A stretch of 64,000 nt of DNA from positions 177,698-241,697 of the forward strand of contig JBPOIT010000005.1 in the NCBI GenBank assembly GCA_052034235.1. Direction: 5' to 3'. Of the stretch, positions 1 through 20,053 are shown in pieces. How positions within the stretch are numbered: position 1 is the first letter of the stretch; every line of letters starts with the position of its first letter. Under the pieces are notes generated by a model. It was not told the DNA's origin. It saw only the letters and a list, made by a program, of their open reading frames with translations, and searched no databases. A program made the position numbers and the translations under genes. This stretch comes from Candidatus Levyibacteriota bacterium (GTDB lineage Bacteria; Patescibacteriota; Microgenomatia; Levybacterales; UBA12049).

Positions 1-1246
1 GTCTTGGGGAATTACTTCCAAAACGCGTTGCAACTAGCTGCGCAACTGCTGTGTGTGGATCCATAACATAATTTGTCTTTTTATAAATATGTTTTATATT
101 TTTCAGACTATCCTCATTTGAAACCCAATCCGCATAAAATTCTTTTTGCAAAATAGCTTTTGTCTTAGCATCAACAGTAAAGGATCCTGTTGATTTCAAA
201 TCATTCATCCACTCGTAGATTTTTTTTGTATCGCCTGACAACACGTATAATAGCCGTTCAATATTACTGGCGATCAGAATATCCATTGAAGGAGAAGGTG
301 TTTTTACCAGGTGACGGTTAGTAATATCGTAAGTACCAGTTCGTAGGAAATCAGTTAATACATTATTGGCATTTGAAGCACATACACATGTTTTAATTGG
401 TAAACCCATACGTTTGGCATAATAAGCTGCAAGAATATTACCAAAATTACCTGTAGGAACAACAACATCGATTTCATCACCGAGTTTAATAACTTTTTGA
501 CTTACGAGCTCTAGATAACCATGGAAAAAATAGACGATTTGTGGAAGTAGCCTCCCCCAATTTATTGAGTTTGCTGAAGAAAGTAAAATGTTTTTTTCTG
601 CTAGTTCTTGTCCAAACGATATATCGGCAAAAAGTTCTTTAACACTACGCTGACAATCATCAAAATCTCCTTTCAAAGCAATAACTGAAACATTATTCCC
701 CTCCTGTGTTACCATTTGGAGTTCCTGAAATTGTGATACCCGTCCTTCCGGATAAAAAACCATTATTGAGATCTTTTTTTTATTTTTATATCCTTCAAGC
801 GCAGCTTTACCGGTATCGCCTGATGTTGCTACCAAAATGAGATATTTATCTGTTTTGTTTTTTACTGCTTCAGAAAAAAAGTGCGGCATAAGCTGCAGAG
901 CCATGTCTTTAAATGCAAGTGTTGGCCCATGCCAAAGTTCAAGCATGTTTTGATTTTCTCGTAGTGGAATCACAGGCGCAATTTGTTTGGTATCAAAATT
1001 GTTTCCATATGCTTTATGCACGAGCTTTTTTATCGTTTGTGCTGTAAGATCTGTTTGAAATTCATTTAGAAGAAAAATAGCTTTTTCCTGATATGTTTTT
1101 CCCAAAAGCTGCCTCAGCTGTTGATTACTAATGTGAGGAATTTTTTCAGGCACAAACAATCCCCCATCTGGAGCAATACCTTTAATAATTGCGTTTGAAA
1201 AAGTAACATGTGTTTTGTTTCCTCTGGTGCTAATGTACTTAATCAT
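1..1246 (-). CDS. thrC: threonine synthase; the 3' end is truncated by the window edge
   Basis: Minus-strand ORF with ATG at 1246..1244, uninterrupted to position 1. Translation begins MIKYISTRGNKTHVTFSNAIIKGIAPDGGLFVPEKIP, which is typical of the threonine synthase N-terminus. Its ATG overlaps the stop of the upstream kinase gene (ATGA). Confidence 0.8.
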   Translation of the reverse strand, partial: MIKYISTRGNKTHVTFSNAIIKGIAPDGGLFVPEKIPHISNQQLRQLLGKTYQEKAIFLLNEFQTDLTAQTIKKLVHKAYGNNFDTKQIAPVIPLRENQNMLELWHGPTLAFKDMALQLMPHFFSEAVKNKTDKYLILVATSGDTGKAALEGYKNKKKISIMVFYPEGRVSQFQELQMVTQEGNNVSVIALKGDFDDCQRSVKELFADISFGQELAEKNILLSSANSINWGRLLPQIVYFFHGYLELVSQKVIKLGDEIDVVVPTGNFGNILAAYYAKRMGLPIKTCVCASNANNVLTDFLRTGTYDITNRHLVKTPSPSMDILIASNIERLLYVLSGDTKKIYEWMNDLKSTGSFTVDAKTKAILQKEFYADWVSNEDSLKNIKHIYKKTNYVMDPHTAVAQLVATRFGSNSPR

Positions 1247-1860
1247 GGTTTGAGTTCCTCTATTAACATCTCTGCAGTAAAACCAGCACCTCGTAAATGA
1301 TGATAGTCCAGTGTTTTGTCGGCGAGTTTTGCATACGCATCTAATCGATAAGCAAGCAAGTCTGCATAACATCTTTCAAGCGCCTGGCTTTCAGTCTCCT
1401 GTTCGTTTTTTTGGTACGCATTTCCCCAAATAATTGGCTTTGGGTTTTTAATAAACACTTCATACATTTGCTGTTGAACTGATTGTGGAGTATCCAAATA
1501 AAGAACGTGTGTTATATCTTTCAAGCGTTTTAAAATCACCAAATCTATATAAATAACACTGCCTGTCGTATCAATGACAACATCTTCATCAATATCATTT
1601 ACCTGCATCAGCAATGCTTCCATTACTTCATTTTCAAATTGCAAATATTTACGACTTGTTTGAGGGTATTGCGTATCAAACGGTTGCCCCATCCATTTAG
1701 CAACATCGTTAATACCTCTGTAACCAAGCTTTTGTAATTCATCCCCAAGCTTTTCTTCAATTATGTCATCAACAGAAAAAACTTGGAAATGTTTTTGGGC
1801 CAACTGTTTTGACCAATAACTCTTACCACTTCCCGACATGCCAATTAAAGAAAGTTTCAT
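1243..1860 (-). CDS. P-loop NMP-kinase-fold protein, shikimate-kinase-like; candidate non-orthologous homoserine kinase
   Basis: The start MKLSLIGMSGSGKSYWSKQLAQKHFQVFSVDDIIEEKLG aligns well with the AroK N-terminus (Walker A GxxGxGKS, then the D-rich strand). The GGG shikimate-binding motif is replaced by TTGS. Its ATG overlaps the asd stop (ATGA) and its stop overlaps the thrC ATG (ATGA). The track ORF 1243..1953 extends in frame into asd; MKLSL at 1860 is the likely start. Confidence 0.55.
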   Translation of the reverse strand: MKLSLIGMSGSGKSYWSKQLAQKHFQVFSVDDIIEEKLGDELQKLGYRGINDVAKWMGQPFDTQYPQTSRKYLQFENEVMEALLMQVNDIDEDVVIDTTGSVIYIDLVILKRLKDITHVLYLDTPQSVQQQMYEVFIKNPKPIIWGNAYQKNEQETESQALERCYADLLAYRLDAYAKLADKTLDYHHLRGAGFTAEMLIEELKP

Positions 1861-2954
1861 ATATAGCCTTTTTTTACTAGGAATTCTGCCATAAGGACAG
1901 CTCCGCCTGCCGCACCTCGGATAGTGTTGTGAGAAAGTGAAACAAAGCGCCAACCAAAATGTTTGTCCGGCTCAAGCCTTCCCATTGTTATACCCATACC
2001 ACTGGCATAATCGCGATCGATTTTAGTTTGAGGTCTGTTATCTTCTTCAAAATATTTGATAAGTTTTTTCGGAGCTGATGGAAGACGAAGCTGTGCAATT
2101 GGATTTTCAAAATGTTCAATTGCATCGAGAAGTTGTTTTTTTGTGACTTTTTTCCCAAACTTCACCCGAACAACTGCCATATGTCCATCCGAAACAGCAA
2201 CCCGTACACAAGTAGCTGAGATTGTTGGTTTTTCAGCAATTGTAAGTGTACCCTTTGTTACTTTCCCCCAAATTTTCAAAGGCTCCTTTTCTGACTTTTC
2301 TTCTTCTCCGCCAATATAAGGAATCACGTTCTCAACCATTTCAGGCCAGGTTTCAAAATTTTTTCCAGCTCCTGAAATTGCCTGCATGCTGGTAACTGAA
2401 GCCTCAATTGGCTGGAATTTCTTAAGTGCTGTTAGAATAGATACGTACGATTGAATTGAGCAGTTGGGTTTTACAGCGATAAAACCTCTTCCGAAACCAC
2501 GGTTTTTCTTTTGGATATCAATCAGTTTGACATGCTCAGGATTTATCTCCGGCATGAGCATCGGAATATCTTCCGTCCAGCGATGTGCAGAATTATTTGA
2601 AACGACAGGCACTCCGGCTGCAGCATACGCAAGTTCAAGTTTTTGAATCGCATCTTTTTCCATATCTAATGCACAAAATACAAAACCTGTCCCGACGTTA
2701 TCAGGATCAATCTGCTCTGTTACTTTTTCAATGTCAGTGACGACCTGAACCTTAAGCTTAGCTATGCTTTCAGGAACGTTTACCTCCATTTTCCAGCGGC
2801 CTTTTACCGCTTCTTTATACGATTTGCCGGAAGAACTAGGAGATGCCGCGACAACAACCACTTCAAACCACGGATGATCCGCAAGTAGTGTTACAAATCT
2901 TTGCCCTACCATACCGGTAGCGCCTAATATGCCAACTCGTATTTTCTTTTTCAT
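1857..2954 (-). CDS. asd: aspartate-semialdehyde dehydrogenase
   Basis: 365 aa. Has the N-terminal Rossmann motif GILGATGMVGQ and the active-site NCS motif (KPNCSIQS). Length and overall pattern fit ASADH. Lies inside the thr operon. Confidence 0.85.
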   Translation of the reverse strand: MKKKIRVGILGATGMVGQRFVTLLADHPWFEVVVVAASPSSSGKSYKEAVKGRWKMEVNVPESIAKLKVQVVTDIEKVTEQIDPDNVGTGFVFCALDMEKDAIQKLELAYAAAGVPVVSNNSAHRWTEDIPMLMPEINPEHVKLIDIQKKNRGFGRGFIAVKPNCSIQSYVSILTALKKFQPIEASVTSMQAISGAGKNFETWPEMVENVIPYIGGEEEKSEKEPLKIWGKVTKGTLTIAEKPTISATCVRVAVSDGHMAVVRVKFGKKVTKKQLLDAIEHFENPIAQLRLPSAPKKLIKYFEEDNRPQTKIDRDYASGMGITMGRLEPDKHFGWRFVSLSHNTIRGAAGGAVLMAEFLVKKGYI

Positions 2955-2957
2955 ACG

Positions 2958-3974
2958 TTATATTTTATCAAAAATTGTCGAGATATCTCCAAACACCCCA
3001 GCAGCTGTTACTTCTCCACCTGCACCAGGACCTTTCACTATCAACAGGTTATTCAGGTAACGCTTGGTTTTGAAAACGATAAGATTATCCGGACCAGACA
3101 AACTACCAATATCTGATGTTTTATCGACTGCAACGAGTCCAACTTTGCATCCTTTTTTGGTTACATTGGCGACAAATCTCAGTACTTTGCCTTCTGTTTT
3201 TGCCTTTGCAGCTTTTTCTTTATACGATTTATCCAGATCAGAAATTTGACTCAAAAATGCCTCAACAGAAAGTTTTTCCATGTTTTTAGGATATAACCCC
3301 TCAAGTTTGACATCTGCCATTTCAACTTCCAATCCCAAAAGACGCGCCAAAATAAGCGCTTTACGAGCAACGTCCACTCCAGATAAGTCATCACGAGGAT
3401 CTGGTTCGGTAAACCCTAATTTTTTTGCTTCCAAAACTGCCCTGGAGAATGATGCACCATTTTCAATTTGTGAGAAGAGAAAGCCAAGTGTACCACTGAA
3501 ACATCCCTGGATTTCCAATACATCATCACCTGTTGCGAGAAGCGTCTTAAGTGTTGAAATAACGGGCAAACCTGCACCGACACTTGTTTCGTAAAACAAT
3601 CTTTCCCCACCTACTTTATGAAGCATATCAAAATCTTTTTGAGAACTAGCAATCGGCTTTTTATTGGACATCGTGACATATCCTCCGCGCTTGAGAGCCT
3701 GTTTCATATACACCATCGTTTTATCAGAAGCTGTCGTATCGATAAGGACAAAAGGAAGCGGCATCGCATCTATGGCATCAGTAACAGTCATCTTGGAATT
3801 TGTTGAAACACGTTTTAACTCGCTTTTTGAAAGACCGGTTTTCTTAAATACACCTGACTTTGACGTAAAGACGCCGCAATAAACATACTGCTTTGGGGCA
3901 TGTTCTGTTATTTGCTCAATGAGCTTTCCGCCCACATTGCCTGCACCTAGTTGTAATAAAAAGAGTTTTTTCAT
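2958..3974 (-). CDS. hom: homoserine dehydrogenase
   Basis: 338 aa. Has N-terminal GAGNVGG, TEPDPRDDLSGVDVARKALILARL and C-terminal GPGAG motifs, which are characteristic of Hom. Confidence 0.85.
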   Translation of the reverse strand: MKKLFLLQLGAGNVGGKLIEQITEHAPKQYVYCGVFTSKSGVFKKTGLSKSELKRVSTNSKMTVTDAIDAMPLPFVLIDTTASDKTMVYMKQALKRGGYVTMSNKKPIASSQKDFDMLHKVGGERLFYETSVGAGLPVISTLKTLLATGDDVLEIQGCFSGTLGFLFSQIENGASFSRAVLEAKKLGFTEPDPRDDLSGVDVARKALILARLLGLEVEMADVKLEGLYPKNMEKLSVEAFLSQISDLDKSYKEKAAKAKTEGKVLRFVANVTKKGCKVGLVAVDKTSDIGSLSGPDNLIVFKTKRYLNNLLIVKGPGAGGEVTAAGVFGDISTIFDKI

Positions 3975-5371
3975 TGTGCTAATTTATAAGCGCTATGGAT
4001 AACTTGTACTGCAGATTTTACATCCGTGTCGGCAATCAAGCAAGTAATATTTCGCTCAGATGATCCCTGGGCAATCGCTCTGATGTTGATACCGTTTGAG
4101 CCAAGTGCTGAAAAGAGTTTTCCGGCAGTTCCTGGTTTGCCGCGCATTCCCTGTCCGACTGCCGCAACAATTGCAAGACCATCTTCTTTTTTTACTGTTT
4201 CAATATATTTATTCATCAGTTCAAGTGCAAATGCATCTTTTAACACCTGTACCGTCCGCTCTCCATCTACATGCGCAACAACAAAGGAAATATTAAATTC
4301 ACTTGAAGCTTGTGAGATAAAATGGACATTAATATCTGATGCTGCAAGTACGGTGAAGAGTTTGGCAGACACACCAGGAACACCAATCATACCTTTACCC
4401 TGAAGGGTGATAAGAGAGATACCTTCAAATGTTGAAATTGCTTTTATACCAGGACGTGTATCGTTTGGTTTCTTTTCAATTCTCGTTCCTTCAAATTCAG
4501 GACGAAACGTATTTTTTATAACAATTGGAATTTCCTTTAGTGCAGCAGGCACCATCGTTAATGGATGCAGGACTTTTGCTCCGAAGTACGAGAGTTCAGT
4601 TGCTTCGTTATACGAAAGTACCTCAATTGATTTTGCTTCTTTGACAATCCTCGGATCAGCAGTCATCACACCATCAACATCAGTCCAAATCCAAACTTCC
4701 GACGCATCAAGACAATTACCAAGTATGGTCGCACTGTAATCAGATCCACCTCGACCAAGAGTTGTTATAACTCCCTGTTTATTGGCACCGAGAAAACCGG
4801 TAATCACCGGAATTATTTTTTTCTTTACCAGTTTGGTAATGTACGGTTTTGTTTTTTCAGCAGACTCCGAAAGAAGTGGTTTGGCACTTCCAAAATCATC
4901 AGAGGTGACGATCAGCTCATTAGCTTCAACTGGCTGTGCTAGTTTGCCTTTTTTTTGTATTGCTGCCGCGACAAGATGGATACTCATGCGCTCACCAAAT
5001 GAAGTCACTAAATCCTGACTTCGTTTTGAAGCTTCAGCAAGTTCATGAATACTGTACAAAAGATTTTTAAGATGTTTGAAATGTTTATCAAGGATATCTC
5101 TATTTTCCTCATGCACTTTTGCCGGAAGAGCAAGATCTTCAAGAGTACTTCGATGCAAGGTATAAAGTTTTTCAAGTTGTTTATTAAGTTGAGGTTTCTT
5201 TCGCTCTGAGGCAAGTTTGGTACATTCAACAAGGAGATTGGTTGCTCCACTAACTGCTGAAACAACTACCACGACTTTCTTTTTTTTGGCTAATTTTGTC
5301 ACAATGTCAGCAACTTCGCTCATTCGAGCTGCGCTTCCGACAGAGGTGCCGCCAAATTTCATCACTATCAT
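3971..5371 (-). CDS. lysC: aspartate kinase
   Basis: 466 aa. Starts MKFGGTSVG and has the amino-acid kinase fold plus two C-terminal ACT-like repeats. Overlaps both neighbouring genes by 4 nt. Confidence 0.9.
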   Translation of the reverse strand: MIVMKFGGTSVGSAARMSEVADIVTKLAKKKKVVVVVSAVSGATNLLVECTKLASERKKPQLNKQLEKLYTLHRSTLEDLALPAKVHEENRDILDKHFKHLKNLLYSIHELAEASKRSQDLVTSFGERMSIHLVAAAIQKKGKLAQPVEANELIVTSDDFGSAKPLLSESAEKTKPYITKLVKKKIIPVITGFLGANKQGVITTLGRGGSDYSATILGNCLDASEVWIWTDVDGVMTADPRIVKEAKSIEVLSYNEATELSYFGAKVLHPLTMVPAALKEIPIVIKNTFRPEFEGTRIEKKPNDTRPGIKAISTFEGISLITLQGKGMIGVPGVSAKLFTVLAASDINVHFISQASSEFNISFVVAHVDGERTVQVLKDAFALELMNKYIETVKKEDGLAIVAAVGQGMRGKPGTAGKLFSALGSNGINIRAIAQGSSERNITCLIADTDVKSAVQVIHSAYKLAQ

Positions 5372-6609
5372 ATCAGGAAATTGTATACCAAATCGTCAGT
5401 GGTAATCTTTCGGTATTTGAGGCCGATTTTTTCCATTTTGCTAAGAAGTGGCTCGAGATCTTTTTTAAATTTCAACTCGATCCCGACAAGGGCTGGACCT
5501 TTTTCCCTGTTCGTTTTTTTTGTGTATTCAAAAAGCACAATATCATCACTTTGTCCAAGTGCCTTGTTAAGAAATTCTTTCAATTGCCCAGGTTTTTGTG
5601 CAAATTCGATCAAGAAATAATGTTTTAATCCTTTATAAACCAAACTTTTTTCAAGTACTTCTGGATAGCGCAAAATATCATTATTGCCTCCGCTTAGAAT
5701 ACAAACAACAGTTTTGCCTTTAATATTTGAAAGTTCATCAAGTGCTGATATGGAAAGTGCACCGGCAGGTTCGGCGATAATTCCTTCCTGCTGATACAAA
5801 TCAATCATCGTCGCACACACTTTTCCTTCTTCGGAAAGCAAGATGCCGTCGACCACTTCTGTTGCAATTTTATAGGTTAAATCCCCGACTGACTGCACAG
5901 CAGCTCCGTCTACAAAGGTGTCAATCGTATCAAGCGTCACAACTTGCTTTTTCTTCATCGATGCATGCATTGCCGGTGCACCTTTTGGTTCTACTCCAAC
6001 AACTTTAATTTTAGGAAGTTTTGCCTTAAGATACGTCCCGATACCAGAAATAAGTCCACCGCCGCCGATAGCTGCAACAACAACATCAACTTTGCCGTTC
6101 ATCTGCTCAAAAATTTCTTTGCCGACAGTTCCCTGTCCTGCGATAGTCAGCGGATCGTTAAAAGGATGGACATAAACAGCCTGTGTGGATTCACCAAATT
6201 CGTGCGCCGCATGTGATGCATCATCGTAGGTATGTCCGACGAGTTTGATTGTCACATACGATCCGCCAAACTGCCGCACTCGATCAATTTTTTGTAAAGG
6301 AGTGATTGCCGGCATAAAAATTGTGCCTTTTATTTTGAGTTTGGCACAACTGAACGCAACACCCTGTGCGTGATTACCTGCACTTGCACAGACAACTCCC
6401 TTCTTTTTTTCGTCAGGAGTCATATGGCACATTTTATTATACGCACCGCGAAGTTTAAATGATCTAACTACCTGCAGATCTTCCCGCTTCAAATAGATAT
6501 GTGCTCCATAAAGTTTTGAAAGCCTTTCTGAATATTGGATAGGTGTTTCTACAGCCACTTTACTGACACACTCATTAGCTTTTTCTATATCTTGTATTGT
6601 TACTTTCAT
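5368..6609 (-). CDS. ilvA: threonine dehydratase (threonine ammonia-lyase) with a C-terminal regulatory domain
   Basis: 413 aa. Has the PLP-lysine motif SFKLRGA and a glycine-rich loop GGGGL. The C-terminal ~90 aa resemble an ACT-like regulatory domain. This is the first gene of the operon. Confidence 0.75.
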   Translation of the reverse strand: MKVTIQDIEKANECVSKVAVETPIQYSERLSKLYGAHIYLKREDLQVVRSFKLRGAYNKMCHMTPDEKKKGVVCASAGNHAQGVAFSCAKLKIKGTIFMPAITPLQKIDRVRQFGGSYVTIKLVGHTYDDASHAAHEFGESTQAVYVHPFNDPLTIAGQGTVGKEIFEQMNGKVDVVVAAIGGGGLISGIGTYLKAKLPKIKVVGVEPKGAPAMHASMKKKQVVTLDTIDTFVDGAAVQSVGDLTYKIATEVVDGILLSEEGKVCATMIDLYQQEGIIAEPAGALSISALDELSNIKGKTVVCILSGGNNDILRYPEVLEKSLVYKGLKHYFLIEFAQKPGQLKEFLNKALGQSDDIVLFEYTKKTNREKGPALVGIELKFKKDLEPLLSKMEKIGLKYRKITTDDLVYNFLI

Positions 6610-6617
6610 ATTTTTTC

Positions 6618-6650
6618 AATTAAAAAAACAAAAAAACCGCCTTTCGGCGG
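6618..6650 (-). terminator. intrinsic terminator (attenuator) in the thr-operon leader
   Basis: On the minus strand there is a stem CCGCC-GAAA-GGCGG followed by the run TTTTTTTGTTTTTTT. It lies about 8 nt upstream of the ilvA ATG and downstream of the leader peptide. Confidence 0.6.
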
Positions 6651-6686
6651 GTCTTGGTATGTTAGCTCACACGTACCAATCCCACC

Positions 6687-6734
6687 CTAGGTGGTAATAA
6701 TGGTAATTGTAATGTTTGCGTTGTTAAAACTCAT
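6687..6734 (-). CDS. thrL: thr/ilv operon leader peptide MSFNNANITITIITT
   Basis: Minus-strand reading is ATG AGT TTT AAC AAC GCA AAC ATT ACA ATT ACC ATT ATT ACC ACC TAG. Eight consecutive Ile/Thr codons come just before the stop. The stop sits in the loop of a CCACC-TAG-GGTGG hairpin, and the terminator lies downstream. Confidence 0.55.
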   Translation of the reverse strand: MSFNNANITITIITT

Positions 6735-6743
6735 ATAAAAGTA

Positions 6744-6771
6744 ATTATATACCTCGACTGGTATTTGTCAA
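6744..6771 (-). promoter_or_regulatory. sigma70-like promoter of the thr operon
   Basis: On the minus strand there is TTGACA (6771..6766), a 16-nt spacer and TATAAT (6749..6744). The -10 box overlaps the TAA stop of the upstream DUF1361 gene. The leader-peptide ATG is only about 9 nt after the -10 box. Confidence 0.5.
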
Positions 6772-7404
6772 CCGCTCAGCACGCATAAAGCTTCTTATAA
6801 ATCGAATCACAGGATCTCTGAACAAGAAATAAAAGAAATTCCCAAACAAACCAAACATAATACTCACAATTGTCAATTCATCACTACTTAACACATTGAA
6901 AGCTGCACTGATAACAGTATCAGTTGCGCTGAAAACATCCCACGAATTAACCCGCTCAACTTTACCCATTACGATTGCAAAACCTATGATGAAATTGAGT
7001 GCAATAATGCTGGTTGAAACAAACTTGCGATGTCTTTTTTTAAACCTATGACGCAGCTCTTTTTCAAACGCATACATACCACAAATGTATGCAAGAAGGC
7101 CAATAACCTCCAAATGAAGATATTGCACAAGAAGCAGGAGACGTTCGCCAAAGGACGCAAGCGGCCATTGCCAAATCACATGCTCCATATCAGAAACGAT
7201 ATACAACGCGTTTGGGAAAAACAAAAGCCACAAAACAGCAAGCACAATTTTATAAAACCCATGATCTGCCTTAAAATACAGGTAAGCAAATGCTACGGGT
7301 AGCACAGCTAAAATTGCGTTCCAAAGCATCCACTGCGCATTAAAAGAAAGGACGTCCATGTATCTATGATAGCAAATCTCGAGAAGAGATCCAAAGACAT
7401 CCAT
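6745..7404 (-). CDS. polytopic membrane protein, DUF1361-like
   Basis: 219 aa with about five TM segments. Has a FFPNALYIVSDMEHV motif reminiscent of the DUF1361 family. Confidence 0.4.
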   Translation of the reverse strand: MDVFGSLLEICYHRYMDVLSFNAQWMLWNAILAVLPVAFAYLYFKADHGFYKIVLAVLWLLFFPNALYIVSDMEHVIWQWPLASFGERLLLLVQYLHLEVIGLLAYICGMYAFEKELRHRFKKRHRKFVSTSIIALNFIIGFAIVMGKVERVNSWDVFSATDTVISAAFNVLSSDELTIVSIMFGLFGNFFYFLFRDPVIRFIRSFMRAERLTNTSRGI

Positions 7405-7447
7405 ATCGCGCCTTTACCCAGTTGTCGAAAATGATTATAATAAAGCT

Positions 7448-8380
7448 GTGCTTATTATAACCGGATCTCTCGCTTACGATTACCTCATGCAATTTCCTGG
7501 AGCTTTTTCAGAACATATTTTGCCGGATAATACACACAACATCAATCTCTCATACATTGTGAATTCTTTTGACAAGCGTCGTGGCGGAACAGGCGGTAAC
7601 ATCAGTTATACACTTGGACTTTTAAAAACTCCTCATAAATTGTATGCCTATGCTGGTGACGATTTTGATGAATATAAGCAAGCTTTTGAAAAACTCGGTA
7701 TAGATTTAAGCGGTGTTCGGATTGATCAATCAGACCATACTGCAACAGGTTTTGCCTTGATGGATAAAAGTCAGAATCAAATTTGGGGCTTTTACTATGG
7801 TGCAGCTGCAAAAAGTGCAGAACTCAGACTTGAAGGTATGGCAACAAAAAGTGATTTACTTGTCGTTGGTCCACAAGGCGCTGCCGGTTCGATGTCATTT
7901 ATCAAACAAGCAATTGATTTAGAAATTCCATACCTTTTTGATCCTGGATTCATCTTGACCCAAGTAACCTCACAAGATTTAGAACTTGGGCTTTCCCATG
8001 CAAAATACGTTATCGGTAACGAATATGAAATAGAACTCATGAAAAAGCGCATCACAACCTGGGACACGATCATAAAAGACAAAATAATTATCACAACACT
8101 CGGAGAACGCGGAGCACAAATCAAAACACCGGATGCAGAATATTCTATCGCTCCGTCAATTGTTATGAATGTCTCTACAACAGCAGGCGCTGGTGATGCA
8201 TGGCGAGGAGGCTTTTTAGCAGGGCTTGAGCGCAATTTAGATTTACAGACTTCTGGACAAATTGGAGCTGTCGCAGCATCTTACGCAGTTGAATCAACAG
8301 GGACACAGGAACATTTATACACTCTCGATGAATTCATAGCCCGCTACAAATTAGCCTACAACCAAGACTTGGCCCTCTAG
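7448..8380 (+). CDS. PfkB-family sugar or nucleoside kinase (ribokinase/adenosine-kinase-like)
   Basis: 310 aa with a GTG start. Has the C-terminal AGAGDAWRGGF (DTxGAGD-type) motif and N-terminal GG dipeptide motifs of the ribokinase superfamily. Confidence 0.6.
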   Translation: MLIITGSLAYDYLMQFPGAFSEHILPDNTHNINLSYIVNSFDKRRGGTGGNISYTLGLLKTPHKLYAYAGDDFDEYKQAFEKLGIDLSGVRIDQSDHTATGFALMDKSQNQIWGFYYGAAAKSAELRLEGMATKSDLLVVGPQGAAGSMSFIKQAIDLEIPYLFDPGFILTQVTSQDLELGLSHAKYVIGNEYEIELMKKRITTWDTIIKDKIIITTLGERGAQIKTPDAEYSIAPSIVMNVSTTAGAGDAWRGGFLAGLERNLDLQTSGQIGAVAASYAVESTGTQEHLYTLDEFIARYKLAYNQDLAL

Positions 8381-8428
8381 ATATCCTTCATTGACAAAGC
8401 TCTGCTTTTTTGCGACGCTTTAATCGTT

Positions 8429-9667
8429 ATGAATAGATTTTCCCTTGGCCATCTCCTCGTTTTAGTCACCATGTGCGTTTTACTTTTTAACGCAGCGTAT
8501 CCAGCACTTGATGTAGGGCGTTATCAATGTTATGCAACAGCTTTCTGGCACGGAACAAATGTCTTGCAGACCTCAGAGTACAAACACTGCGGCTTTCTTT
8601 TAGAAAACCAAAAACCTGTTGGCCCATATCGAATACTGCCGCTAGAGTATCCACCACTTTCACTCATACCCTTTTCGCTTGGTTTGAGCTTTGACTCACT
8701 TGGATATGCAACGTCGTTTAAAATCTGGATGCTTCTTACTGCTGTTTCTCTATACCTGCTTTTGCTGCGTTATGGTACACAAGCCTCGGCAATTGTCTTT
8801 GCACTCTATTTAGTTGCTGGCAGTTGGGCTCTAACGAGTGCACGCTTTGATATTTTCCCCGCACTGCTCACCTTTGGAGCACTGCTCCTTGCTGAAAAAA
8901 AGAAATGGAACTGGGCGTATATTGTCTTAGGTGCGGCTGTTCTTGTGAAGTTCTATCCAATCGTTCTTCTTCCGTTCTTTTTTGTCGCGCAGCAAAAAAC
9001 TATCAAGGGCAAACTCCTCTCTCTGAAACGGATTGAACCACTTATGCTTTTTAGCATTTTATGTATTGTGGTGTTCGGCCTTTCTTATATGCTCAATCCA
9101 GCTGGAACACTTGAACCGCTTACCTACTTTCAACACAGACCAATCCAAATAGAATCTTTGTGGTCATCCATTTTGTGGATTATCCAACCATTGAGTAGTC
9201 CATTACATTACATCTTCAGTTTTGGTTCAATAAATATCCTTAGCCCTCTTTCAGAAGCGATAATACGCCTGAGTTCTATCCTAAGTAGCGCAGGCTTTCT
9301 CGTTATTATCTGGTTGCAAATACGAGGCAAAATTACGTTGGCATATGCATGTATGCTTATGCTTTTATTGACTATTCTTCTTGGCAAAGTTTTTAGCATT
9401 CAATATCTAATGTGGATTGTACCGTTTATAGCTTATGTCGGGAAAAACAATCCATGGCACTTTATTCCGTGGTATACAATTTGTGCTTTAAGCACATGGA
9501 TTTACCCATATATTTATCCAAGCCTCTTCTCAACCAATGAAGATTCATTATTTTTTAATGTACTTTCTTTCCGAAATGGTTTAATGGTTCTGTTTTTTCT
9601 CTTTTTACTCACCTTTGCTATTTTTAAAAAAACTCCTCACCCAATCCATCGCCAGTTAACAAAATGA
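8429..9667 (+). CDS. GT-C fold membrane glycosyltransferase (DUF2029/GT87-like)
   Basis: 412 aa with more than 10 TM segments. The N-proximal loop has acidic and aromatic residues, and a FYPIVLLPFF segment is typical of polyprenyl-phosphate-sugar-dependent GT-C enzymes. Confidence 0.4.
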   Translation: MNRFSLGHLLVLVTMCVLLFNAAYPALDVGRYQCYATAFWHGTNVLQTSEYKHCGFLLENQKPVGPYRILPLEYPPLSLIPFSLGLSFDSLGYATSFKIWMLLTAVSLYLLLLRYGTQASAIVFALYLVAGSWALTSARFDIFPALLTFGALLLAEKKKWNWAYIVLGAAVLVKFYPIVLLPFFFVAQQKTIKGKLLSLKRIEPLMLFSILCIVVFGLSYMLNPAGTLEPLTYFQHRPIQIESLWSSILWIIQPLSSPLHYIFSFGSINILSPLSEAIIRLSSILSSAGFLVIIWLQIRGKITLAYACMLMLLLTILLGKVFSIQYLMWIVPFIAYVGKNNPWHFIPWYTICALSTWIYPYIYPSLFSTNEDSLFFNVLSFRNGLMVLFFLFLLTFAIFKKTPHPIHRQLTK

Positions 9668-18089: not shown

Positions 18090-18114
18090 TTTAAAAACTT
18101 TTATTTATTTATCT

Positions 18115-18582
18115 TTATCTCGTTACTGAAATTGTTTCTCCAAGTTCTGCTGCTGGGGCTGTGATTGTTATTCTACTATCGCCTGCTCCGACTGCTACTG
18201 TGTATCCAGTTACATATCCTGCTGGGCATGTTGATGCAATTGCTACTCCACCGTTTGTCAATGGATCTACTGGAAGTTGTGCGATATATTGGGTGACGAG
18301 TGCTCCACAGATATCTTGTGCTGCATCTGAAATTGCTCCTGATCCACCAGCTGCTGGCATTCCTGCTGGAAGTGCACCGTTATTGTCTGCTTGATATTGA
18401 CCTATTGCATTAAGGATAGCGTTTACGTCTGATGATCTCTTTGTGTTATTTGCTTGTGAGAATTGTCTTGCTGGATTGATAGCGATAAGGGTGATTGATA
18501 GGAGGATAGCTAAGATGCCGATAACGACTAGCAGTTCGATAAGTGTGAAACCTTTTTGTGATTTAAAATTTTGGACAGTCAT
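18115..18582 (-). CDS. pilA: type IV major pilin, copy 1
   Basis: 155 aa. Has a class III signal MTVQNFKSQKG|FTLIELLVVIGILAILLS with E at +5. The C-domain is Ala/Gly-rich with two Cys residues. Confidence 0.85.
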   Translation of the reverse strand: MTVQNFKSQKGFTLIELLVVIGILAILLSITLIAINPARQFSQANNTKRSSDVNAILNAIGQYQADNNGALPAGMPAAGGSGAISDAAQDICGALVTQYIAQLPVDPLTNGGVAIASTCPAGYVTGYTVAVGAGDSRITITAPAAELGETISVTR

Positions 18583-19563: not shown

Positions 19564-19585
19564 TGTAGATTAAGAATAATTAAAT

Positions 19586-20053
19586 TTAGCGAGTGACTGA
19601 GATAGTTTCACCAAGTTCTGCTGCTGGGGCTGTGATTGTCACTCTACTATCACCCGCTCCGACTGCTACTGTGTATCCGGTTACATATCCTGCTGGGCAT
19701 GTCGATGCGATTGCAACGCCACCGCCGGTCAATGGATCTACTGGAAGTTGCGCGATATATTGGGTGACAAGTGCCCCACAAATATCCTGTGCTGCATCTG
19801 AGATCGTTCCAGACGCTCCTGCAGCTGGCATTCCTGCTGGAAGAGCTCCATTGTTATCTGCTTGATATTGGCCGATTGCATTAAGGATAGCATTTACATC
19901 AGATGATCTCTTTGTGTTATTTGCTTGTGAGAATTGTCTTGCTGGATTGATAGCGATAAGGGTGATTGATAGAAGGACTGCTAAAATACCGATAACGACG
20001 AGGAGTTCGATGAGTGTGAAACCTTTTTGGGATTTAAAATTTTGGACAGTCAT
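19586..20053 (-). CDS. pilA: type IV major pilin, copy 2
   Basis: 155 aa. Has the same prepilin leader as copy 1. It differs from copy 1 at about 5 residues (I13V, G90A, A93T, N117G, I143V). Confidence 0.85.
   Translation of the reverse strand: MTVQNFKSQKGFTLIELLVVIGILAVLLSITLIAINPARQFSQANNTKRSSDVNAILNAIGQYQADNNGALPAGMPAAGASGTISDAAQDICGALVTQYIAQLPVDPLTGGGVAIASTCPAGYVTGYTVAVGAGDSRVTITAPAAELGETISVTR

Follow-up and report, generated by a model that had tools for sequence, protein, structure and literature searches.

A predicted leader-peptide attenuator in front of the ilvA-threonine operon of a Levybacteria genome

The 64,000-nucleotide (nt) stretch analyzed here (the window) belongs to a Candidatus Levyibacteriota bacterium (GenBank assembly GCA_052034235.1, contig JBPOIT010000005.1, positions 177,698 to 241,697) and carries on its minus strand a short leader directly upstream of ilvA. 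This leader is very probably a ribosome-mediated (leader-peptide) transcription attenuator that controls the ilvA-ask-hom-asd-kinase-thrC operon. The genes of the operon are those of threonine synthesis and of the first step from threonine to isoleucine. The leader consists of a promoter, a short open reading frame (ORF) ending in isoleucine and threonine codons, and four RNA segments that form two mutually exclusive sets of helices. In relatives the helices covary and the tail of the peptide is conserved.

For the proposed mechanism we infer where transcription starts, that translation is coupled to it and how the leader responds to amino acids. RNA polymerase would start at, or 1-2 nt ahead of, the leader AUG to give a leaderless leader mRNA, and a ribosome would load onto this 5'-terminal AUG and translate MSFNNANITITIITT. 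With charged tRNA-Ile and tRNA-Thr plentiful, the ribosome would reach the stop codon and mask segment 2 (GGUGGG), so that segments 3 and 4 would pair, the terminator would form and transcription would end ~100 nt from its start. With isoleucine or threonine scarce, the ribosome would stall on codons 8-12 and mask segment 1 (CCACC), not segment 2. Segment 2 would then be free to pair with segment 3, aided by an inner hairpin, the terminator would be blocked and polymerase would read through into ilvA and the threonine genes.

Elements of the leader

The coordinates of the attenuator and operon parts are all on the minus strand and were taken directly from the sequence (Table 1). An earlier, sequence-only reading of this DNA had described a TTGACA-16-TATAAT promoter, a 15-codon leader ORF whose final eight sense codons are all Ile or Thr, a CCACC-TAG-GGTGG hairpin over the stop codon and a CCGCC-GAAA-GGCGG hairpin followed by a T-run. 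All of these are present. The sigma-70 promoter (6771-6744) matches the consensus at 12 of 12 positions and is the sole such site within 5000-9000. In the leader peptide MSFNNANITITIITT (ORF at 6734-6687), eight of the 15 codons are Ile or Thr and form one uninterrupted run. When such runs were counted in all six frames of the window, this one was the longest (the runner-up has five codons), and runs of at least eight codons arose in 2 of 200 shuffles (1%). Across the ordinary genes of the window, Ile and Thr together make up 14% of codons.

The CCACC-UAG-GGUGG hairpin spans the leader stop codon, and CCGCC-GAAA-GGCGG (6650-6637) with its T7GT7 tract was scored as a terminator by the terminator scan. 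The gap to the ilvA ATG, previously given as 8 nt, had to be corrected: the ATG (6609) lies 27 nt past the terminator stem and 12 nt past the final T of the tract. A promoter-like site for ilvA was looked for in the 27 nt between terminator and ATG and none was found.

Folding and the modeled effect of a stalled ribosome

The energies of individual helices and states were evaluated separately. In the minimum-free-energy fold of the leader, GGUGGG pairs with CCCGCC to form an antiterminator stacked on the inner hairpin; an alternative GGUGG:CCGCC pairing had been suggested before. The terminator state totals −20.5 kcal/mol (1:2 and 3:4 as in Table 1, inner hairpin −3.3 kcal/mol), and 2:3 with the inner hairpin amounts to −16.5 to −18.7 kcal/mol. 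Both conformers (1:2/3:4 and 2:3) exist at close energies, which was the outcome of the folding comparison that the sequence-only reading had put forward as a check. It follows from the helix energies that masking segment 1 favors the antiterminator, and that masking segment 2 leaves the terminator alone.

To model the ribosome, partition functions were calculated with the ribosome-covered nucleotides held unpaired. The probability of the terminator was 0.01-0.10 when codons 7-12 occupied the ribosomal A site, 0.35 for codon 13, and 0.65-0.93 for codons 14, 15 or the stop codon; this pattern held for assumed downstream footprints of 8-12 nt. In this model, codons 8-12 are placed where a ribosome stall would give read-through, and the two terminal ACC codons would serve mainly as segment 1. 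With a shuffled 35-nt spacer, the mean terminator probability was 0.68, and 3.7% of shuffles were as low as the observed 0.044. Among fetched loci around related genes (contigs or stretches of metagenome-assembled genomes (MAGs), designated by L-numbers), the same modeled switch recurs in L166, L168, L169, L171, L172, L040, L009 and L017.

Covariation of the helices

Leaders from 24 loci were aligned using MAFFT without regard to structure (wide alignment A3), and the alignment was compared with 500 shuffles. The 2:3 helix is paired in 82.0% of cases versus 72.9 ± 2.1% in shuffles (reached by 0 of 500), and its covariation score is 0.274 versus 0.145 (0 of 500). Five of its six pairs have changed on both sides (11 of 500 shuffles), and slid registers of the helix are paired to 61% at most. 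For the 1:2 + 3:4 state, 20 cells versus 11 have changed on both sides (1 of 500).

Duplex energies were also calculated for matched partners and for partners permuted among leaders (5000 permutations). The mean 2:3 duplex energy was −10.0 kcal/mol versus −7.7 ± 0.4 kcal/mol for permuted partners, and the mean 1:2 duplex energy was −9.2 versus −7.0 ± 0.4 kcal/mol; neither value was reached in 5000 permutations. For a representative set of 12 leaders, picked by eye so that each clade or stem variant is present once, the corresponding counts were 3 of 5000 for 2:3 and 0 of 5000 for 1:2. Note that the leaders are mutually related, so that the shuffle and permutation figures cannot be taken as probabilities in the strict sense; the stems comprise at least five unrelated sequences. 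The near-identical contigs L081-L085 have an identical leader sequence, and hence hold no covariation information.

Conservation in relatives

Among species-representative genomes, the closest IlvA proteins are 61-69% identical; most belong to MAGs that bear the labels Patescibacteria, Roizman-, Levy-, Davies- or Gottesmanbacteria, and other labels, e.g. Gammaproteobacteria, also occur. The UvrB protein encoded in the window shares 84% identity with one assigned to Candidatus Levyibacteriota and 82% with one assigned to Levybacteria, which suggests a Levybacteria genome, and further UvrB matches at 81-84% bear different labels (Saccharimonadales, Sulfotelmatobacter). Contigs with IlvA that is 79-86% identical (L166-L169) are syntenic, with pfkB (opposite strand), DUF1361, leader and ilvA in this order. 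The window leader MSFNNANITITIITT heads ilvA-ask-hom-asd-kinase-thrC and onward; MAQQYANILITITITT heads ilvA-ask-hom-asd-kinase-ridA in L166, MLARKSISKIAITIITT ilvA-ask-hom-kinase-(38-amino-acid (aa) ORF)-ridA in L167, MFLPVQTNSIIAISIITT ilvA-thrC-ridA in L168, and MFLTENANSIIAVSIITT ilvA-ridA in L169. L166-L169 keep the promoter, the Ile-rich ...IITT tail, the stop-codon hairpin, the antiterminator and the terminator. The N-terminal half of their leader peptides is variable, and the inner hairpin is kept with other sequence (GGUU/AACC in L166, UUGC-AUGA-GCAA in L167).

The architecture is kept in a different gene context in L170 (MFQTAHYSIVSIMTP) and L171 (MITNSIIIIAAFNTP), where IlvA is 70-72% identical. 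Both leaders have a ...TP tail and GGCGG as segment 2, and L170 is without a clear −35 hexamer. The leader of L172, MNSQKNLIIVVILTP, precedes ilvB-ilvN-ilvA-(glyoxalase)-ilvD. Distant MAGs (Microgenomates and other candidate phyla) have Ile-rich leaders before ilvA with different stems, for example CCUUCC-UAA-GGGAGG with CCUCCC-AUAAA-GGGAGG in L040, CUCGC/GCGGG/CCCGC in L002 and GGGGUUGU/ACAACCCC in L023. The 24 leaders, from Microgenomates and related MAGs, share a common architecture with differing stem sequences, and the regulatory codons are conserved in L166-L171 and in the distant MAGs while the rest of the peptide is not. Conservation, which the sequence-only reading had proposed to look for, was borne out: upstream of ilvA, related genomes retain the leader ORF with its Ile-rich tail as well as the alternative helices, whose stems show compensatory changes.

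A scan of metagenomic IlvA (80 loci at ≤66% identity) found few loci that carry such a leader within the stretch retrieved and, by a first filter, none with one directly at ilvA. In the scan loci that were read, ilvA lies within an operon and overlaps the preceding gene.

Points against an attenuator, and rival explanations

Several results weigh against the attenuator as proposed. In alignment A3 the 1:2 + 3:4 state is paired in 71.9% versus 68.4% of cases, only weakly above shuffles (17 of 500), partly because the terminator loops, which vary in length, are misaligned. In the alignment of the closest family (A2, seven sequences) the stems are nearly invariant, and covariation is uninformative. 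The mask model shows no clear switch for L014, L025 and L032. At equilibrium, free RNA favors a state with the antiterminator and an additional 1:4 pairing, and the terminator has a probability of 0.32, so that the default without a ribosome is not clearly termination and hinges on the kinetics of co-transcriptional folding. Finally, the −10 box of the window lies 9 nt, not 6-7 nt, from the AUG, and a 5' untranslated region (UTR) of 1-2 nt is possible.

Given an attenuator, the leader might sense isoleucine only, with the Thr codons incidental or structural (ACC ACC being segment 1 and the ACA/ACC codons 9 and 11 being neutral). We consider this unlikely, though several features agree with it: stalls on Thr codons 14 and 15 do not favor the antiterminator in the mask model (terminator probability 0.7-0.9), Thr codons are missing from the effective zone in the closest relatives L168 and L169 (SIIAISIITT and SIIAVSIITT), and the majority of the family leaders are only Ile-rich. 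Thr codons 9 and 11 of the window, however, are inside the zone where a stall gives a terminator probability of 0.02. Internal Thr codons are also found in six of the six ilvA leaders whose operon has Thr-related genes (the window, L166 and L167 with ask-hom-(asd)-kinase; L040, L023 and L025 with thrS-infC), and seven leaders of ilvA-ridA (L169, L171, L009, L011, L015) or ilvA-ilvD-ridA (L002, L003) operons have none. Here L003 was counted through its near-identity to L002, and L017, which has an Ile-only leader and ridA after ilvA, was left uncounted. The single exception to this link between Thr codons and thr genes is L168 (ilvA-thrC-ridA); as read from the leaders, the link is suggestive and extends to at least two independent clades. 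In E. coli, too, the thr leader contains both Thr and Ile codons.

The short unit delimited by the strong promoter and the strong terminator could instead be a stand-alone small gene: a ~100-nt transcript that encodes a hydrophobic 15-aa peptide or acts as a small RNA (sRNA), with ilvA under its own promoter. Trans-acting RNAs and peptides derived from attenuators are known, e.g. rnTrpL/peTrpL (PMC6614838, PMC7298713). A small gene is nevertheless very improbable here, given that no promoter-like site was found in the 27 nt from terminator to ilvA ATG and that a biosynthetic gene, ilvA or another, always follows the unit directly despite changing neighbors. Conservation of the peptide is limited to the regulatory codons, and the covarying 2:3 helix would have no role. 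That the hairpin is the terminator of DUF1361 and the Ile/Thr ORF a chance ORF in an AT-rich spacer is extremely unlikely. DUF1361 is on the same strand and no other terminator precedes ilvA, but the 12/12 promoter lies between the end of DUF1361 coding and the hairpin. Loci with a different upstream gene (DUF5660, ilvC, an unknown 112-aa ORF) keep the ORF with its codon bias as well as the antiterminator, an eight-codon Ile/Thr run occurs in 1% of shuffled windows, and loss of the ORF with retention of the hairpin was not observed among close relatives. There is equally little probability that a factor in trans (a T-box tRNA, a protein or a metabolite), instead of a translating ribosome, sets the switch, even though ilv and thrS genes of Firmicutes are under T-boxes (PMC2965389). 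The leader is just ~105 nt, it has no T-box or riboswitch match even at E ≤ 10, and the amino acids of the peptides track the operons (Ile/Thr; isoleucine, leucine and valine (ILV); Leu; aromatic), which points to codon reading.

The operon and neighboring genes

The gene order reported earlier, ilvA-lysC-hom-asd-kinase-thrC, was confirmed (lysC being the aspartate kinase gene, ask). All operon genes are on the minus strand, and their junctions are 4-nt start/stop overlaps or a 3-nt gap; the start of the aspartate kinase gene overlaps the ilvA stop.

Table 1. Features of the attenuator, the operon and the upstream gene, with window coordinates.
Feature	Position	Strand	Basis or remark
−35 hexamer TTGACA	6766..6771	−	promoter scan; 16-nt spacer to −10
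−10 hexamer TATAAT	6744..6749	−	promoter scan; 9 nt (6743-6735) to leader ATG
Leader ORF MSFNNANITITIITT, 15 codons + TAG	6687..6734	−	ATG 6734-6732, TAG 6689-6687
Predicted regulatory codons 8-12 (I T I T I)	6699..6713	−	ribosome-mask fold model
Segment 1, CCACC, within Thr codons 14-15	6690..6694	−	pairs with segment 2, −7.1 kcal/mol
Segment 2, GGUGGG, directly 3' of stop codon	6681..6686	−	alternative partners: segment 1 or segment 3
Inner hairpin UUGGUA-14 nt-UACCAA	6654..6679	−	closes antiterminator loop
Segment 3, CCCGCC	6646..6651	−	terminator 5' arm and antiterminator 3' arm
Segment 4, GGCGG	6637..6641	−	terminator 3' arm; loop GAAA 6642-6645; 3:4 −10.1 kcal/mol
T7-G-T7 tract of intrinsic terminator	6622..6636	−	directly 3' of stem
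ilvA, threonine ammonia-lyase, one C-terminal regulatory domain	5368..6609	−	NF006390, 614 bits versus cut-off 421
Aspartate kinase (ask)	3971..5371	−	TIGR00657, 445 bits versus 209; TIGR00656, 409 versus 402
Homoserine dehydrogenase (hom)	2958..3974	−	homoserine dehydrogenase part of bifunctional PRK09436, 320 bits
Aspartate-semialdehyde dehydrogenase (asd), archaeal/eukaryal type	1857..2954	−	NF006416, 448 bits versus 232
205-aa P-loop, shikimate-kinase-like protein, in homoserine kinase position	1243..1860	−	function from gene context
thrC, threonine synthase, first 415 codons	1..1246	−	ORF and start codon; runs off window edge
DUF1361 gene, upstream, same strand	6745..7404	−	synteny DUF1361-leader-ilvA kept in L166-L169

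For the aspartate kinase, the top-scoring model, PRK06291, is slightly under its cut-off (525.5 versus 528). No NCBIfam model attains its curated cut-off for the homoserine dehydrogenase gene, and Pfam Homoserine_dh was found on the identical hom gene in L081. The 205-aa P-loop protein gave 43.5 bits with hom_kin_desulfo (below the cut-off of 197) and marginal matches to Pfam SKI and AAA_33; it is probably a non-orthologous homoserine kinase. Its homologues occupy the same position in L166 and L167. The name thrC is taken from the earlier reading, the gene context and the Thr_synth_N/PALP gene beside ilvA in L168.

The terminator scan found no terminator between the DUF1361 gene and the leader, so that read-through transcripts from DUF1361 would likewise encounter the attenuator. 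The DUF1361 stop codon (6747-6745) lies inside the −10 box, 10 nt ahead of the leader AUG; this geometry is also seen in L166 and not in L168. Translation of the leader on read-through transcripts could proceed by termination-reinitiation.

Comparison of L166, L167, L168, L169 and L171 with window positions 1-6609 reveals a series of shrinking operons headed by the leader: ilvA-ask-hom-asd-kinase-(thrC)-ridA, ilvA-ask-hom-kinase-ridA, ilvA-thrC-ridA and ilvA-ridA. This series suggests that the threonine pathway is under ongoing loss or gain, with ilvA-ridA as the stable core. In one Levybacteria clade, an Ile/Thr leader and ilvA are followed by thrS and infC within 6-41 nt (L040:7280-9092; L025:7255-9100; L023:4150-5989). 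In this clade the attenuator may also control threonyl-tRNA synthetase, a task that T-boxes perform in Firmicutes.

Elsewhere, the window contains type IV pilus genes and GT87/PIG-V-like glycosyltransferases, both of which are regarded as common in genomes of the candidate phyla radiation (CPR). Two 155-aa genes on the minus strand (18106-18582 and 19577-20053) are paralogues that share 86% identity over 300 nt and the very same upstream sequence, and each contains a prokaryotic N-terminal methylation (type IV pilin) motif.

Comparison with known systems

Rfam was searched at E ≤ 10 over 6300-7100 and at the gathering score over the whole window; no family reached its threshold in either search. 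T-boxes and riboswitches were rejected as candidates, there being no match at E ≤ 10 (6300-7100) or at the gathering score (whole window).

The sequence-only reading had compared the leader to thrL/ilvL-type attenuation. This holds for the mechanism and not for sequence membership in Rfam Thr_leader (17 bits versus a gathering score of 55). Like thrL of E. coli and Salmonella (RF00506), whose E. coli form has mixed Thr and Ile codons, the leader has a short ORF in which Thr and Ile codons are frequent, 1:2/3:4 helices that exclude the 2:3 helix, an intrinsic terminator right before the first threonine-pathway gene and, as proposed, a dual Thr/Ile logic. It differs from thrL in having no sequence or structure homology (RF00506 at E = 2), a shorter peptide (15 aa), a stop codon placed in the 1:2 hairpin loop, an inner hairpin that separates segment 2 from segment 3 and, by its promoter geometry, neither a Shine-Dalgarno (SD) sequence nor a 5' UTR. 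The operon behind it also differs: it begins with ilvA, has separate ask and hom genes and an archaeal-type asd, and has a P-loop kinase in place of thrB. The ilvL leader of E. coli ilvGMEDA likewise precedes an operon that contains ilvA and combines Ile-rich regulatory codons with alternative hairpins. It is 32 aa long, SD-led and responsive to Ile, Leu and Val, whereas the window leader is without Leu or Val codons.

The closest parallel to a leaderless start comes from Corynebacterium. For the C. diphtheriae ilvB leader MNIIRLVVITTRRLP, the transcription start is the leader start codon (PMC5784534), and C. glutamicum ilvBNC has a leaderless leader peptide (PMC11857589). Leader peptides of ilvB, leuA and trp operons in Actinobacteria have been analyzed comparatively (PMC1262725). 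The Corynebacterium ilvB leader resembles that of the window in its Ile/Val/Thr-rich peptide, its terminator and antiterminator hairpins and, as predicted from promoter geometry, its leaderless form. The window leader differs from those of Actinobacteria in belonging to another phylum (Patescibacteria/CPR), in lacking sequence similarity, in regulating ilvA fused to a thr operon and in having a transcription start that is predicted.

The best sub-threshold Rfam match is RF00624 (Pseudomonas sRNA P9) at 6632-6704 (minus strand), with 24.9 bits and E = 0.005 against a gathering score of 43. The P9 consensus starts with AUUAUUAUUACC, followed by a CCGCC...GGCGG hairpin and a terminator. P9 carries an sRNA annotation. 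The resemblance is probably convergent; it may also be that P9 is an Ile/Thr leader recorded as an sRNA.

In a survey from 2010, the leader-peptide systems known beforehand were from Proteobacteria and Actinobacteria only, and the Firmicutes were added (PMC2965389). Our literature search returned no paper that links CPR or Patescibacteria with leader peptides or attenuation, which is weak negative evidence. The search also returned nothing relevant on Patescibacteria and leaderless transcripts.

Predicted leaderless starts

From the promoter geometry, the first transcribed nucleotide is predicted to be that of the leader AUG itself or to lie 1-2 nt ahead of it. A set of 18 relatives had leaders that were detected without any promoter filter; in these, the distance from the −10 box to the start codon is mostly 6-7 nt (range 6-10 nt). 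A TTGACA-like −35 hexamer (TTGACA or TTGACT in most printed leaders) is mostly paired with the −10 box at 16-18 nt.

Close −10-like boxes are common in the window. An SD-like motif precedes just 6 of 58 window ORFs, and a TAnnnT box lies 5-9 nt before the start codon in 24 of 58 (chance expectation estimated at ~13%). Many of these boxes are perfect TATAAT or TACAAT, exactly 6 nt from the start. Such starts in the window include 7448(+), 10824(−), 10905(+), 36498(+), 37954(+), 49362(+) and 56251(+). With few SD-like motifs and many close −10-like boxes, leaderless mRNAs look like the rule in this Levybacteria genome. The near-leaderless leader had been noted before, and had been called unusual for ribosome-mediated attenuation. 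The promoter geometry stands; the description as unusual does not, because the arrangement is family-wide, is the apparent norm of the genome and has a precedent in Corynebacterium.

Sister leaders in related genomes

All fetched loci were scanned generically for a short ORF of biased composition that has a −10 box 5-9 nt ahead of it and is followed by a spacer and a terminator. Within the window, the ilvA leader is the sole match. In relatives, a leader rich in Phe, Tyr and Trp (VKKKDLIFYFFYFTS, L025:9753-9853) lies directly before an operon of 3-deoxy-D-arabino-heptulosonate 7-phosphate (DAHP) synthase, aroB and aroQ, and is a candidate aromatic amino-acid attenuator. Other Phe/Tyr/Trp-rich leaders are found at L023:6502, L017:11705 and 12276, L011:12164 and 12726, and L018:7644. 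Each Phe/Tyr/Trp-rich leader is of the predicted leaderless type with a stop-codon hairpin, an antiterminator and a terminator.

Leu-rich leaders, e.g. MKSQIAFTLALLLTR, are at L017:4708, L011:4925, L116:2833 and L094:3202; the 259-aa gene after that of L017 has no NCBIfam match. ILV-rich leaders (L172:~4690, L031:2770, L030:2346, L012:2265 and L013:4049) stand directly before long ORFs (563-590 aa), and the ORF of L031 has acetolactate synthase (thiamine pyrophosphate-enzyme) domains. The gene after the ILV-rich leader was identified as ilvB by Pfam in L172 and L031, and is assumed to be ilvB from ORF length in L030, L012 and L013.

The module (promoter, start ~7 nt past the −10 box, biased peptide, hairpins) occurs before ilvA, ilvB, candidate Leu-rich units and DAHP synthase-aroB-aroQ. 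Leaderless leader-peptide attenuation may well be a general mode of amino-acid sensing in Microgenomates and related CPR, a generalization that we hold with moderate confidence. As judged from the leaders compared, codon content may have been re-tuned with operon content, with Thr codons where ask-hom-asd-kinase or thrS joined ilvA.

Implications

CPR/Patescibacteria are known chiefly from metagenomes and are usually described as being without amino-acid biosynthesis. Here, a Levybacteria genome has a complete gene set from Asp to Thr to 2-oxobutyrate behind a predicted translation-coupled attenuator, and its relatives use predicted sister attenuators for the Ile/Leu/Val and aromatic pathways. 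The novelty is moderate: it concerns the lineage and the existence of sister leaders that belong to Leu, ILV and aromatic operons, the attenuation mechanism itself being known. Almost nothing was found in the literature on gene regulation in CPR; if leaderless leader-peptide attenuation is indeed general in these bacteria, it would be the first cis-regulatory system found described for CPR, within the literature searched. The known range of leader-peptide attenuation would be extended beyond Proteobacteria, Actinobacteria and Firmicutes (PMC2965389).

An attenuator of this type implies functional transcription-translation coupling on leaderless mRNAs and, if this mode proves general, would be indirect evidence that such coupling is tight in CPR. 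Relatives that share the leader, with operons from six genes down to ilvA-ridA, provide a natural experiment on codon content versus operon content. More generally, these attenuators would offer a way of reading from sequence which amino acids are made and sensed in uncultured cells.

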